A stretch of 64,000 nt of DNA from a virus (lineage: Duplodnaviria > Caudoviricetes): the IMG/VR virus record IMGVR_UViG_2834101283_000005, positions 7,010 through 71,009 of that record; one strand, 5' to 3'. Below are positions 13,141 through 60,135 of this stretch, one piece after another. A program made the position numbers and the translations under genes. The notes beneath the pieces are model-generated. The model had not been told where the DNA came from. It did no database searches and saw only the letters and a list, made by a program, of their open reading frames with translations. Position 1 is the first letter of the stretch; every line of letters begins with the position of its first letter.

Positions 13141-13484
13141 ATAGCAAAGCCAAGGGCAAAAGAGCAGAACTTGCCATTGCCCATTATTTTCAGGGACATG
13201 GGTTCCCTGATGCTCACCGAACGGCTCAAGTTATGGGCAAGACTGGCGGTTGCGCTGACGTAGAAGGTGTTCCGGGAATCCACATCGAGGTCAAGCATAA
13301 CGAACACTTGAATCTTTATGATGCGATTGACCAAGCGGTTCGTGACAGCGAAGCCAATGGGAACGGGAATGTCCCTACGGTCTTCCACAAGAAGAACGGT
13401 AAAGAATGGCTTGTGACAATGCGCCTTGATGATTGGTTCGGATTATATGAACGATGGAAAGGTGATAGTACCAATGCACAGTAA
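13134..13484 (+). CDS. Hjc-like Holliday junction resolvase (PD-(D/E)XK)
   Basis: NSKAKGKRAE...ADV...IHIEVKH; GTG start at 13134. Confidence 0.8.
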   Translation: MVNSKAKGKRAELAIAHYFQGHGFPDAHRTAQVMGKTGGCADVEGVPGIHIEVKHNEHLNLYDAIDQAVRDSEANGNGNVPTVFHKKNGKEWLVTMRLDDWFGLYERWKGDSTNAQ

Positions 13485-13777
13485 AGCATTGACCCTTGGG
13501 AGCCTGTTTGACGGCTTGGGTGGGTGGCAAATTGCTGCCGTAAGGGCAAACGTTACGCCACTCTGGTCAAGTGAAATAGAAAAATTTCCCTTGACGTTGA
13601 CTAAGATTAGGTTTCCAGAGACGGAGCAGTTGGGCGACATTACAAAGATTGACGGGAGCCAAATTGAGCCGGTTGATATTTTGACTATGGGAAGCCCATG
13701 CCAAAATTTGTCCGTTTCAGGCAACAGGAAGGGATTGAACGGTAACGAATCGTGTTTATTTAGAGAGGGGATTAGAA

Positions 13778-14202
13778 TTGCAAGAGAAATGCGTAAGGCA
13801 ACCAACGGGGTGTATCCCAGATACATTGTTTGGGAAAATGTTCCCGGAGCCTTCTCCACTAACAAAGGGGCTGACTTTAGAGCTGTGCTGGAAGAAATCA
13901 CAGAAACCGAAATTCCAATGCCTCGTAGCGGGAAATGGGCAACAGCTGGACTGGTTAGAAGCCCTGAGTGTACAGTCGGATGGCGAACATTGGACGCCCA
14001 GTATTGGGGAGTCGCCCAACGTCGCCGTAGAATCTTCCTTGTCGCAGATTATCGTGACGGGGGGGGGGCTGCGTTGAGGAAATACTTTTTAAGCCCGAAA
14101 GCCTGTCAGGGAATCCTGCGCCGAGCCAAGACGAAAGGGAAAACGTTGCCGGACATCCTGACAAAAGCTTTGGAATCGCAAGCTGCGACCCTTGGTGTAT
14201 AG
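13778..14202 (+). pseudogene. Overlapping alternative-frame protein (M.EcoHK31I beta-like), broken by the same G10 tract
   Basis: LFGKMFPE...GESPNVAVESSLSQI before the tract joins RKYFLSPKACQGILRRAKTKGKTLP after it when one G is added. Confidence 0.65.
14059..14068 (+). repeat. G10 homopolymer tract
   Basis: GAC-GGGGGGGGGG-CT. Confidence 0.95.
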
Positions 14203-14799
14203 CCGGTAACATAATCGGTCGCAATGACTGCAACGGCGGCAATCAACTAGGTGTTCAAAAGGATAAAAGCTACACTTTAACGACACAGGATAGGCATGCT
14301 GTTGTTTATGACATGGGGCATCCTTGTGACGTTATCAGGGAATTTCGGCGCGTGTCTCCTACATTATTGAGTGCTATGGGAACACACGGGAATAGAGTGC
14401 CTTTGGTTCTAAATGACCAAGGCGGAGAATCTATAGGGGTTAGCCATGGGGTTACAGCCACTCTCAGGGCAAGCGAACATGGTCATCAACCAGTTATCGT
14501 CCAGGCTGATTCGTTTAGCAGTTTTAGCGATACTGGCGTGGCAAGTTCACTCAAAGCCAGCGGCGGTGTCCTTGGGGGAGGCTCAGAAAACCTTGTCACA
14601 GGGAATGAGGAAGTTTGCCCAGTGGTGCGCAAGCTAACTCCCTTGGAATGTGAGCGGCTACAGGGGCTACCAGATAATTGGACACTGATTGACGATAAAA
14701 GTTGCAGCGATTCGGCTCGATATAAAGCTATTGGGAACGGCATGGCACAACCTTGTGCAGACTTTATTATTGCCAGAATCGCAGAAGTAGAAAGGAAAT

Positions 14800-15318
14800 A
14801 TGAAGGAAATTAAAAGGAGCAATGTTCCTTGTTGGGGAAATGAGCAGAATCCCTTCCATGTCAACGAAATGGACGATACGATTTCACAAGTCAATTCGAT
14901 TGACACGAGTATTGCAGAAGTTAATTCGTTGCCGTGGACGTGGAAGCCTGACCCAAGTCTAACACCCACAGAACTTATTGATTCGTGGAAGAATTTCCAA
15001 ACCACTCTTAATGGAGCAGTAGAGAAACAGAAAAAGGAACAAGCGGCTAAGAAGACAGAAAGACTAAAAGAAAGGAAAGTGTTAGGGATGAACAAAAGCA
15101 GTGTCGAGTACGCAAATAAATTGAAACGATTTTTGAAGTATAAAGAGTACGATAAAGACACGCTGAAGCTGCTTGGAGTTATTGCAACTCGTAGCAGTGA
15201 AAAGCATACGAAATTGGATAGCGAAATTAAGAATGCCATTGTTGAGCTTGAATGTAGGCTTAACGACAGCACATGGCTCGTTAATCAAGCAAGAATGATT
15301 GGGAAGGGGATTCACTAA
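14800..15318 (+). CDS. Hypothetical protein
   Basis: Operonic ORF with SD. Confidence 0.6.
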   Translation: MKEIKRSNVPCWGNEQNPFHVNEMDDTISQVNSIDTSIAEVNSLPWTWKPDPSLTPTELIDSWKNFQTTLNGAVEKQKKEQAAKKTERLKERKVLGMNKSSVEYANKLKRFLKYKEYDKDTLKLLGVIATRSSEKHTKLDSEIKNAIVELECRLNDSTWLVNQARMIGKGIH

Positions 15319-55899: not shown

Positions 55900-58125
55900 G
55901 TGAAGCGACAAGCATTTCAGCGCGGGGAAATCCGCGATTCAAACGACAATATTATCCAAGCCGGTTCATATGGCAAAAAGTCGCCGTTTGTCACAAAGGA
56001 TAACCAAGGTATTCTTGACTATATCATAAACAACTTCCAGGCGTTGTTTGATATGGTCAGCGGAGCCTTTATTTACGTAGACAACTATGCTTCATTGCCC
56101 GAAGCCGGCTTAGATAATGCATTTTATGTGACGAAAGATGACGGTAAGACGTATCGCTGGGACGGGGAATCATGGGTTTTAGTTTCTTCGTCCGTGGATG
56201 GTTTGTCTGCATACGAGATTGCCGTAAATCATGGTTTCGAAGGCAGCGAAGACGAATGGCTTCAAAGCCTTATTTGTCAAGTTATCGACGCCGAAGTGGA
56301 TGATAACGGCAATCTGTTCTTTAATTTCAACAATGGGGTTAAGGTAGAGACACCGATTCAGCCGATTATTGATGCTATAAAATATCGCGACGAAGCAGCG
56401 GAAAGTGCGACCGAGGCGAAAACAAGTGAGACTAACTCGAAGACATCAGAACTTAATGCTAAATCTTCCGAGACAGCAGCTAAAGCGTCGGAGAATGCGG
56501 CGGCGGAATCTGAATCTAATGCCCAGGTCAGCGAAACTAATGCAAAGGCATCCGAAAATTTAGCTCAGGCTTGGGCCGTATCGGAAGGTTCCCCAGACAA
56601 CCAAAGCGACAACGAAAGCCCTACAGGAAAAACTAGAAGTGCTCGTTCATGGGCGTTAGAAACGATTGCGGCGAAAAAAGCTGCGGCAGTATCGGAGGCT
56701 AACGCAAAGGTCAGCGAAACGAACGCCAAGGCGTCCGAAGTGTCTAGTGCCAATAGCGCATCTGCTGCGGCATCATCAGAAACCCATGCGGCAAGTAGCG
56801 AAACGTCCGTGGCCCAAGCGTTAGCTGAAATTAAAGTCATCCAAAATTCCCTTGAGAGCGCGCTCTCAAAAGTTACTGGCATGGCTAAGTATTGTGGCTC
56901 GGTCAATAACTACTCAGACTTGCCGACAAGCGGGAATAAAACTGGTGATGTGTGGAATGTTGTGAATGCTGATTCCTCGCATGAAATCAAAGCTGGTGAC
57001 AATGTTATCTGGAATGGGGCTGGATGGGACAACCTTAGTGGCTTCGTAGATTTGTCCAATTACCCAACGAATGCGGACGTGTCAAAAGCTGTGGTTTCTG
57101 TCACTTACAGCAACGACCAATTAACATTTATTCAAAAGGATGGCAGCCGTATTTCTACTACGGTGAATAATGTTAATTCTGCCGTTAAGGCCACATATGA
57201 TGGTAATGGGCGTAACATAGCCAATACTTACGAAACCCAAAGCGATGCGTCTAGTGCGCATCAAGAACTAAGCGGGTATATTAACGGTATCGTATCTGGG
57301 ACAACAACTGTAGGGAAAGCCAAACAGGATGCTTCCGGCAACATCATCAATGAAACATATTTGCGACAGGATGTAGCTTCGAGTGTTTACGAGAGTAAAT
57401 CGCAAGCTAATAGCTTGGTCAAAACAGTTACGGAAAATGAGGGGAAAGTCACGGTTACGACTCAAGCTGGCTCTCAGAATAGTTTTTACACCGGTTTGAA
57501 CTTATTGCAACGTAATAAGAAATACGCTGTAGGCGATATAGCGTATAGCCCAAATCTTCCTAGTTGGGCATACCTAGAATGTATTCAAGCAGGCACAACG
57601 GGTGCGGCTGAACCCGACCTCCAAAGTAGTGGGGGGGGGGTACTAACGTCTGATGGGAGTGTACGTTGGCGCATTCGAGACAAAAGATGCCGCTATGAAG
57701 TTGGCGATATAGTGCCTAAATTGGTATCACCCAAGGATTACGAATATTTGCTTATATGTGACGGCAGTAGCTTTGATACGAGTAAATACCCTTTATTGGC
57801 TGAGGTGTTCCCGGATGGAGTATTGCCAGATTTAAGAGAGCGGTATCTCGAAGGAGCTGCTACATCAAAACAATATCGGGAAGCAGGGTTGCCGGGGATA
57901 TATGCTGCGGTTGCTGCTAAAGACGCTGTTGCATGGGGGAGTACAGGCGGAGCCTTTTACCTTAGTGGAGATTATTACAATGGGCCATTAGGGAATGGCA
58001 CGCAACCATATGCACAGAATATACTCAATTTCAATGCGTCATTGTGCAGTCCGATTTATGGCAAATCTGATACAGTACAACCTGCTTCTTATACAGTTAC
58101 TTACTATGTGTGTTGCGGAGGATAA
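55900..58125 (+). CDS. Tail fibre protein (AK.SE repeats, tail-collar-like C-terminus) with an in-frame G10 tract at 57631-57640
   Basis: NAKASE repeats; LICDGSSF...LPDLRERY; C-terminal IYGKSDTVQP. Confidence 0.88.
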   Translation: MKRQAFQRGEIRDSNDNIIQAGSYGKKSPFVTKDNQGILDYIINNFQALFDMVSGAFIYVDNYASLPEAGLDNAFYVTKDDGKTYRWDGESWVLVSSSVDGLSAYEIAVNHGFEGSEDEWLQSLICQVIDAEVDDNGNLFFNFNNGVKVETPIQPIIDAIKYRDEAAESATEAKTSETNSKTSELNAKSSETAAKASENAAAESESNAQVSETNAKASENLAQAWAVSEGSPDNQSDNESPTGKTRSARSWALETIAAKKAAAVSEANAKVSETNAKASEVSSANSASAAASSETHAASSETSVAQALAEIKVIQNSLESALSKVTGMAKYCGSVNNYSDLPTSGNKTGDVWNVVNADSSHEIKAGDNVIWNGAGWDNLSGFVDLSNYPTNADVSKAVVSVTYSNDQLTFIQKDGSRISTTVNNVNSAVKATYDGNGRNIANTYETQSDASSAHQELSGYINGIVSGTTTVGKAKQDASGNIINETYLRQDVASSVYESKSQANSLVKTVTENEGKVTVTTQAGSQNSFYTGLNLLQRNKKYAVGDIAYSPNLPSWAYLECIQAGTTGAAEPDLQSSGGGVLTSDGSVRWRIRDKRCRYEVGDIVPKLVSPKDYEYLLICDGSSFDTSKYPLLAEVFPDGVLPDLRERYLEGAATSKQYREAGLPGIYAAVAAKDAVAWGSTGGAFYLSGDYYNGPLGNGTQPYAQNILNFNASLCSPIYGKSDTVQPASYTVTYYVCCGG

Positions 58126-58128
58126 AGA

Positions 58129-58600
58129 TTGAATATAAACGATGTGATTACAGACGGTACGGCAAAATTTGTCGTCCGCTCTATGGGATTTTTGGATTTA
58201 CTGGATGCCCTTCATCCTATTGGAGATATTTATTTGACAGTAAAAGAAGGGACTCCTTTTGCCAAATTTGGTTTCGGCCAGTGGAAACTTGTAGGACAAA
58301 ACAAATGTCTCTGGGGGGGGGGGTACTGATAATGTAGCAGGGACGGAAATCGAAGCAGGTTTGCCAGAAATATATGGCAACACTGATATAGGCGGATTCT
58401 CTGGGATATATTCTGAGGCTAGTGGCGCGTTCCACTCAACGATTGTTGTTCCTAATACTACTGTTGCTACGGTAGCAAGTGCGGACACTCATTTAGAAGT
58501 AGTAGATTTTATGGCTTCTCGGTATAACCCTATTTACGGCAAATCTACTACAGTACAACCACCAGCTTATATAGTATATATATGGCAGCGAATAGCATAG
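58129..58600 (+). pseudogene. Tail tip module 1, frameshifted at G11 (58313-58323)
   Basis: G10 would give QNKCLWGGGTDNVAGTEIEAGLP, colinear with modules 2 and 4. Confidence 0.85.
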
Positions 58601-59103: not shown

Positions 59104-59628
59104 ATGATACAGGAAAATACAATTATTACGGACGGTTCATGTAAGTTCGTAGTACGAAATATTGGTGGGGGGGGGGTAATTTCTAAAGGTTTCATTGCGA
59201 TGTTCGATGGGACTTTTCAGAACGGATACCCCATAGACGAAACCACAGGACTTCCCGATACTCATTGGCATATATGTGATGGCACGAATGGGACTCCCGA
59301 TTTGAGGGATAGGTTTATTGTTGGTTCAGGAAGTTCATATAAGGTGGGCGACAAGGGCGGCGAAGAAAAACATAAGTTAGCGGTAAACGAGTTACCAGAA
59401 AGAACTGTTGTTTCTTTTAAAAACACTAGCGGGAAAGGTATTACCACCCAACCAATTAGAGTCTGGAATACCGAACTTGAGACGATGGTGAATAATGGCT
59501 GGGGAGATTGTAATATTTATGACGCTAAAAATAATGTAACCCCACCATTAACCTCTGGTAATTTATGGCAACCCCACGAAAACCGACCACCATATTACGC
59601 TTTAGCATTTATTAAAAAGATTAGATAG
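59104..59628 (+). CDS. Tail tip module 3 (tail-collar-type) with in-frame G10 (59167-59176)
   Basis: IITDG..KF.V; WHICDGTNGTPDLRDRF; HENRPPYYALAFI. Confidence 0.85.
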   Translation: MIQENTIITDGSCKFVVRNIGGGGVISKGFIAMFDGTFQNGYPIDETTGLPDTHWHICDGTNGTPDLRDRFIVGSGSSYKVGDKGGEEKHKLAVNELPERTVVSFKNTSGKGITTQPIRVWNTELETMVNNGWGDCNIYDAKNNVTPPLTSGNLWQPHENRPPYYALAFIKKIR

Positions 59629-59637
59629 GAGAAATTA

Positions 59638-60135
59638 TTGGACAATATGATTACAGACGGGACAGCTAAGTTTGCTGTCCGCAGCTTCAAATTCAAGGAT
59701 ATTTTAGTTGGCGTATTAGACGCCATTTTCCCCGTCGGGAGCATTTACTTGACAACAGCCGAGGGTAGCCCATTTGAAAGCTTTGAATTTGGCACTTGGG
59801 AACTTGTGTCGCAGGATAGATGCCTGATGGGGGGGGGGGCTAAACACCCTGTAGGAGAGAACGTAGAAGCAGGGCTGCCAAATATTATAGGTGGTGCTAA
59901 TTTTAGAGATTGTACTACCGAAAATAGAGATACGTTAATGCAAGCACACGATGCATTTTATACTAAAAAAACTCTTTGGAAAGGCCGTCATGGGTCACTT
60001 ACTATAGAAGCGAACGAAGACCCATATTATAACTATTTATATATGGATGCTTCTCGTTGTAGCAGCATCTACGGTGCATCCGATACGGTACAGCCCCCTG
60101 CGTACACGGTTTATGTGTACAAAAGAATAGCATAA
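59638..60135 (+). CDS. Tail tip module 4 (FPVGS-type) with in-frame G11 (59829-59839)
   Basis: MITDGTAKF.V; FPVGSIY; EAGLPN; IYGASDTVQPPAY. Confidence 0.85.
   Translation: MDNMITDGTAKFAVRSFKFKDILVGVLDAIFPVGSIYLTTAEGSPFESFEFGTWELVSQDRCLMGGGAKHPVGENVEAGLPNIIGGANFRDCTTENRDTLMQAHDAFYTKKTLWKGRHGSLTIEANEDPYYNYLYMDASRCSSIYGASDTVQPPAYTVYVYKRIA

Follow-up and report, generated by a model that had tools for sequence, protein, structure and literature searches.

In the present study we find that a run of ten G in the C5-methyltransferase gene of a prophage is probably a hypermutable contingency tract lying in dual-coding methylase DNA, with its length set by slipped-strand mispairing. The run was found in a stretch of 64,000 nt, hereafter called the window. 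A sequence-only reading had proposed a phase-variable switch at this site, and the analysis supports that proposal; switching in this prophage, translation of the nested frame and an effect on methylation are inferences, as neither read-level variation in the prophage nor a nested product nor a methylation change has been shown. What is new is the placement of the tract inside DNA that codes in two frames, the recurrence of such tracts within a single methylase family and the evidence for the nested frame being a gene of wide conservation.

The two methylase halves on either side of the G10 tract were analysed separately. Both matched Pfam PF00145, the N-half over profile positions 3-164 (E 2e-31) and the C-half over positions 272-322. 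In frame 1, motifs I, IV (PCQ) and VI (ENV) start at 13504, 13690 and 13831, and motif VIII (QxRxR) occupies 13996-14049; in frame 0 the EEILFKPESL linker is found at 14076, motif IX at 14625-14681 and motif X at 14721-14753. The C5 methylase motif set is complete and ordered, and is split across the two frames at the tract, which is the sole break that we found in the gene. The G10 lies exactly where the sequence-only reading had placed it, in a methyltransferase gene that is otherwise intact, and motif IX is kept in the main frame as claimed there. The frame-1 ORF at 13426-14202 encodes 258 aa when counted from its TTG; the ATG at 13474, preceded by GGAAAGGTG, is a likelier start of the methylase than the TTG at 13426. 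A model of the homologous methylase of locus L001 matched M.HhaI in Foldseek (E 9e-17). We take the prophage enzyme to be an orphan C5-cytosine methyltransferase. The host is probably a member of the Firmicutes, as inferred from the hosts of related phages; no close relative of this phage at the DNA level was found among GenBank phages.

Table 1. Features of the methylase locus and G runs of the tail-fibre region, in positions of the window.
Feature	Position	Strand	Remark
C5-methyltransferase N-half, motifs I-VIII, frame 1	13426..14068	+	PF00145 match and motif coordinates
Methyltransferase C-half, frame 0 (linker, target-recognition region, motifs IX and X)	14058..14813	+	
Nested +1 ORF, N-part, frame 2	13778..14077	+	Cut by TGA 14075-14077 in the G10 state
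Nested ORF, conserved tail (KYFLSPKACQGILRRA...), frame 1	14077..14202	+	In the G10 state continuous with the methylase N-half; ends at TAG 14200-14202
G10 homopolymer, proposed slippage site	14059..14068	+	Gly codons in all three frames
G10 run inside 741-aa tail-fibre ORF	57631..57640	+	In frame
G11 run in fibre-tip module 1 (58129-58600)	58313..58323	+	Module split, currently out of frame
G10 run in ORF 59104-59628	59167..59176	+	
G11 run in fibre-tip module 59638-60135	59829..59839	+	In frame

Past the tract, frame 1 reads into the tail of the nested ORF (14077-14181) before it reaches its stop, and in relatives this same peptide is the natural continuation of the nested ORF. The spacer between motif VIII and the tail measures 54 nt in the window as against 46, 49 or 52 nt in homologues, hence the methylase frame needs either one G more or two G less. 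Each of these changes joins frame 1 to frame 0, giving 462 aa from 13426, and at the same time joins frame 2 to frame 1, giving 141 aa. The earlier claims that G11 or G8 would restore a 462-aa methyltransferase, and that the same change would create a 141-aa alternative-frame fusion from 13778, are right for the starts chosen, and the frame arithmetic behind them is confirmed. With 8 or 11 G the full methylase and the full nested protein are both encoded. With 10 G, as in this record, or with 7, neither normal product is encoded, the methylase N-half running on into the nested tail, and with 9 G the nested N-part is fused to the methylase C-half and the methylase N-half is truncated. The coding output of the G10 state is the 258-aa fusion of motifs I-VIII with the nested tail along with a truncated nested N-part of 99 aa; the methylase C-half would here be untranslated or internally started.

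The tract is not a chance run, as the lengths of the G/C runs in the 64 kb taper to a single run of six and then jump to five runs of 10-11. These five, the methylase tract and the four runs of the fibre region, which fall in the 741-aa tail-fibre ORF and three of the small tip modules after it (Table 1), are the only G/C runs longer than six, and all are G on the + strand. A contingency locus is expected to hold a long in-frame homopolymer that sets the reading frame, which the G10 does, and to show length polymorphism between otherwise identical sequences, which is fulfilled in relatives only. We suggest that replication slippage would alter the length of the run, and that the run length would in turn set the methylase and the nested protein together, on or off. 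The methylase would, by inference, protect the phage DNA from host restriction, and its variation would be a hedge, since some hosts restrict DNA that is unmethylated and others DNA that is methylated. Both methylation and the fate of the phage under host restriction would then change with the state of the tract.

To find relatives we scanned viral and metagenome collections for the exact pattern of the tract-upstream sequence followed by at least 7 G. Ten true homologues with G7 to G11 at the same site were recovered; scanning genome contigs for the tract pattern gave chance matches only. The run is G7 in L093, G8 in L082, L083, L089 and L101, G9 in L092, L094 and L098, G10 in L084 and G11 in L095. 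Over flanks of 250 nt, L094 (G9) and L095 (G11) are 100% identical, and so are L089 (G8) and L092 (G9), the latter two being 99% identical to L084 (G10). Counting the window, all three frame states occur: both genes are in frame in five loci, the methylase N-half is joined to the tail in three (the window included) and the nested N-part is joined to the methylase C-half in three. Upstream of the tract, even the closest of the relatives that bear it share no more than about 75-79% identity with the window, and several of the tract-bearing relatives are low-coverage metagenome contigs in which homopolymer lengths are less certain. The tract is hypervariable across relatives; no reads were available for this prophage and its own population has not been examined. 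A comparison of tract lengths across related phages had been put forward as a check on the switch, and the range from G7 to G11 at one site, with pairs of identical flanks, bears it out.

As reads are missing for this prophage, its G10 could be a miscount or could be fixed. If the true tract were G11, the methylase would be intact and no switching would take place in this phage. Runs of 10-11 bases are error-prone on many platforms, and a single base restores an otherwise intact gene; both points speak for a miscount. We nevertheless consider it unlikely, since the independently assembled relatives span more than a one-base error would explain, a second record (L084) also reads G10, and of the four other G10-11 runs in the window some are in frame and some are not.

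A second variable G tract (G7-G9) was seen in the variable region about 289 nt after the first in five relatives (L082, L084, L089, L092 and L101); the window has only G5 at this position. In the same five loci the last ~72 codons, with motifs IX-X, are out of frame with the variable region; they may form a small ORF of their own or be a sign of decay.

Long homopolymers are known sites of RNA polymerase slippage, and none of the three frames is closed across the tract. One genotype could yield a mixture of products if RNA polymerase slipped or ribosomes shifted frame on the G run; the DNA state would then be less important than it seems, and such recoding could accompany slippage in the DNA. 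As the explanation of the locus we find it quite improbable, because the tract length differs at the DNA level among relatives; for the RNA itself there are no data.

In two further clades of this methylase family the linker has acquired a separate tract, here located past the nested tail. One has G7 in L034, G8 in L042, L052 and L064 and G9 in L044, with near-identical flanks, and the other has a poly-C run, C9 in L053 and C10 in L051 and L058. In the +1 state of the L034- and L051-type clades the nested ORF is fused in frame to the methylase C-half. The methylase family has evolved linker tracts at least three times, independently, and a linker that tolerates runs of Gly or Pro appears to be a preferred site for such switches. 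It seems very unlikely that the window gene is merely a pseudogene which broke at a fragile run without any adaptive switching. Some members of the family are indeed broken elsewhere (L005, L030, L107 and the truncated L112), and L082 and L084 have more frame breaks downstream, but the window methylase has a single break, the tract site is kept in a clade that has diverged to about 75-79% identity, and the three origins of tracts in one linker go along with coexisting in-frame and out-of-frame alleles.

For the nested ORF a homologue set was made by scanning IMG/VR with the frame-1 product, which gave 80 loci with methylases 48-68% identical; motif VIII and the tail could both be located in 75 of these. 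The query used for ranking contained the tail, and the share of the family with a nested ORF is therefore a biased estimate. In every one of the 75 scorable loci the tail is in the +1 frame of motif VIII, the window being the exception, where motif VIII and tail share one frame. In none of the 75 do the two methylase halves form one chain that includes the tail in frame between them. The +1 ORF is mostly 134-140 codons long, starting 70-72 codons before motif VIII and ending 62-69 after it, and the +2 frame is open for 9-123 codons only, mostly fewer than 55. Stops in the +1 frame number 0.11 per 132 codons, compared to 1.96 after synonymous shuffling; taken alone this depletion is only suggestive (median per-locus P 0.07).

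The decisive test is the comparison of frames in the tail block, 40 codons aligned over 72 distinct loci. Here the nested frame has a mean pairwise amino acid identity of 0.68 and the methylase frame one of 0.41, no different from the non-coding third frame (0.41), and nucleotide conservation tracks the codon positions of the nested frame (0.81, 0.83 and 0.61). The difference in identity along with this periodicity indicates selection on the nested frame, and we take it as the signature of purifying selection acting on that frame itself. The nested frame is a real coding frame, with the reservation that its translation has not been shown in any phage. Lack of conservation among homologues would have refuted the sequence-only reading, and its alternative frame passes on both counts, the uniform +1 position and the higher identity. 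We give least credence to an untranslated +1 frame conserved through nucleic-acid constraint or as a by-product of methylase conservation, for which it can be said that the nested N-part is largely dictated by conserved methylase motifs, that the +1 frame is stop-poor anyway (about two expected per 132 codons) and that no protein evidence exists for the +1 product, but against which stand the methylase frame of the tail block being conserved no better than the third frame, the nested-frame periodicity, the codon bias building the nested SD and ATG (see below), the conservation of the peptide across Firmicutes phages, P1 and mycobacteriophages in spite of a diverging methylase linker, and the equivalent +1 stretch of the canonical enzyme gene, E. 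coli dcm, which is not open and has 5 stops.

In homologues the nested ORF starts at an ATG with an SD-like motif (mostly GAGG/GAGGT) within 18 nt upstream in 42 of 58 distinct contexts. The SD and the ATG are formed by the methylase codons for E-M-R and N/D-G. At the SD the Arg codon is AGG in 34 of 43 cases versus 15% gene-wide, and at the start the Asn codon is AAT in 30 of 31 versus 49% gene-wide; the nested start signals are under selection through synonymous choice. The window lacks both conserved start sites, having ACG and AAC-GGG in place of ATG, and its only remaining nested start is the TTG at 13778 with the SD-like GAGAGGGG 7 nt upstream, which is a weaker signal. A general short form of 60-64 aa from an internal ATG, plausible in P1, was considered and rejected, as it was present in only 6 of 52 contexts and without codon bias there.

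The N-part of the nested protein is predicted to be disordered over about 100 residues; the end of the protein has helices at 94-99, 111-123 and 130-141, and pLDDT reaches about 90 or more only in the tail, from about residue 111 to 140. This C-terminal part is confidently predicted as a basic two-helix module. The AF2 model of the L001 methylase has a confident fold except for residues 207-265 (pLDDT <50), which are the linker overprinted by most of the nested tail. In these models the methylase linker and the nested tail show a reciprocal pattern of predicted order and disorder.

The nested ORF belongs to no Pfam family, with neither a PF00145 match nor a methylase motif, and its profile had no match among PDB sequences. 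A structure search gave no convincing fold, the best Z being 3.5 or less on a generic helical hairpin. We found a single weak PHROG match (16143), and in the ESM Atlas unnamed clusters only. With hhalign the nested profile aligns exactly to Dcm residues 288-338, the canonical segment (L-x-D-I-L ... KYxLS) that comes after motif VIII in C5 methylases of a single chain, but the alignment is not statistically supported (probability 3.9%, E 0.011). Its function is untested; most likely the nested protein is an accessory or regulatory partner that works with the methylase, which is a guess that may equally well be wrong.

By tblastn the nested frame was detected in 135 of 50,697 phage records, with hosts that include Vibrio, Mycobacterium and Escherichia. 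Gp127 of Mycobacterium phage Omega, the methylase of Caulobacter phage DMCA and dmt of coliphage P1 all encode the peptide +1 of the methylase, and none of these three records, which were opened, annotates the nested ORF. In P1 (L111, AF234172.1) the nested +1 ORF of dmt lies at record positions 66710-67201, spans 163 codons between stops and includes the conserved tail; a product of 64 aa would result from a start at the internal ATG 67007, which GGAG precedes by 8 nt. As P1 carries the nested ORF, its role is directly testable in E. coli. The Omega methylase (L105, 1053-2357) is annotated as gp127 and gp128, which are in the same frame and split by a stop and two further codons, and a nested +1 ORF of 159 codons lies inside gp127.

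The nested-ORF profile matches 5184 representative protein clusters, and the inspected members were all stand-alone calls or frameshift fusions with methylase parts. Gene callers miss the nested ORF or mis-call its frameshifted fusions. A free-standing copy of the nested gene was not found, and no paper describing the nested ORF was found in the literature. Two candidates for a free-standing gene were rejected: P0142 arose by a deletion joining PolA with a methylase remnant, and P0122 is a one-base loss in an A run. At L107:2780-2900 one A is lost in an A run at the nested start, giving a 246-aa protein made of methylase residues 1-112 and the whole nested ORF. This fusion is present in two metagenome samples, a similar fusion protein of 247 aa exists in an NCBI assembly, and many of the ~246-aa database proteins may be fusions of this or a similar kind.

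A different arrangement of the same parts is seen in L114 (1021-2778) and L116 (840-2660), which have a fixed two-ORF layout without a homopolymer at the junction. There a stop closes motifs I-VIII and the linker, and the nested ORF continues through the variable region to motifs IX-X; loci of the L034 clade in the G8 state are arranged alike. Such joining of the nested ORF to the C-half is found in 6 of the 75 loci, 5 of the 6 at homopolymers. Among the best 150 database matches to the nested profile about half are longer proteins, consistent with the two-ORF layout (12 inspected). With two-chain layouts in L114, L116 and the L034-clade G8 loci, OFF may not be the proper description of every state, and a two-chain form of the enzyme might make use of the nested head. 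We also entertain, tentatively and without favouring it, that the product of the nested +1 ORF is a partner, so far undescribed, on which a very large clade of phage C5-methyltransferases, P1 Dmt among them, depends. It could be a small subunit, or else the head by which a beta chain binds alpha. Fused to the half with the target-recognition region and motifs IX-X in L114, L116 and the L034-clade G8 loci it would form a two-chain enzyme, and the tracts, placed repeatedly by phages in the shared DNA, would toggle between single-chain, two-chain and OFF rather than simply ON and OFF.

In bacterial phasevarions a simple repeat in the frame of a methyltransferase switches the enzyme ON or OFF; the enzymes are host regulators, mostly Type III Mod adenine methylases. 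The contingency tract that we propose here differs in that it sits in an orphan phage C5 enzyme, whose likely role, by inference, is protection against host restriction, and in that a second gene is co-switched. M.AquI is a naturally split C5-methyltransferase, and L114 and L116 resemble enzymes of its type in encoding motifs I-VIII and the target-recognition region with motifs IX-X as two overlapping ORFs, unlike the window methylase, which is a single chain once the tract is in frame. The overlap in L114 and L116 is about 135 codons, with the second chain starting with the nested ORF, compared to the 20 nt shared by vsr and the end of dcm in E. coli; the nested protein does not resemble Vsr.

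Repeats in phage genes were named contingency loci in a 2025 preprint (bioRxiv 10.1101/2025.10.21.683753), which describes poly-G tracts in receptor-binding genes of Fletchervirus (Campylobacter phages) and repeats in T2/T4, citing Sorensen 2021 and Liu 2004, and mentions a poly-G run in the methylase gene of Bordetella phage BPP-1. The tracts found here are like these loci in being homopolymers of 7-11 G inside phage genes that give reversible frameshifts, the reversibility being known for the published loci. They are unlike them in that one methylase family has evolved tracts at least three times, and in that the tract lies in DNA read in two frames, so that three length classes give three protein sets.

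The sequence-only reading had also pointed to a resemblance with M.EcoHK31I, where the beta peptide is encoded within alpha in another frame, carries the motif IX that alpha is missing and is needed for activity (PMC2836561). The nested architecture holds, as here too a small ORF is contained entirely within the gene of a C5-methyltransferase, sharing its strand but not its frame. The supply of motif IX by the small protein does not, since in the window motif IX and motif X are both retained by the main frame, and methylase motifs are absent from the nested protein; the nested ORF moreover overlaps motifs VI-VIII and the linker, unlike the M.EcoHK31I beta. As motif IX stays in the main frame, we do not regard the locus as a member of the M.EcoHK31I type.

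Whether the DNA of a phage withstands host restriction or falls to nucleases that depend on methylation is decided by its cytosine methylases, and a stochastic switch in such a methylase, if true, would amount to bet-hedging by the phage. The proposed switch sits in a gene within a gene, and the nested gene spans phages of gut Firmicutes, mycobacteriophages and coliphage P1. Along with the four tail-fibre tracts, the methylase tract suggests a prophage that varies host recognition and DNA marking alike.

A rearranged member of the family was detected at L085:3750-5300 (Logan SRR19918143 and two other runs), where the methylase is circularly permuted and has two frame breaks. The order is motifs II-VIII, the variable region, IX, X and then motif I, and it is identical in contigs from the three runs.
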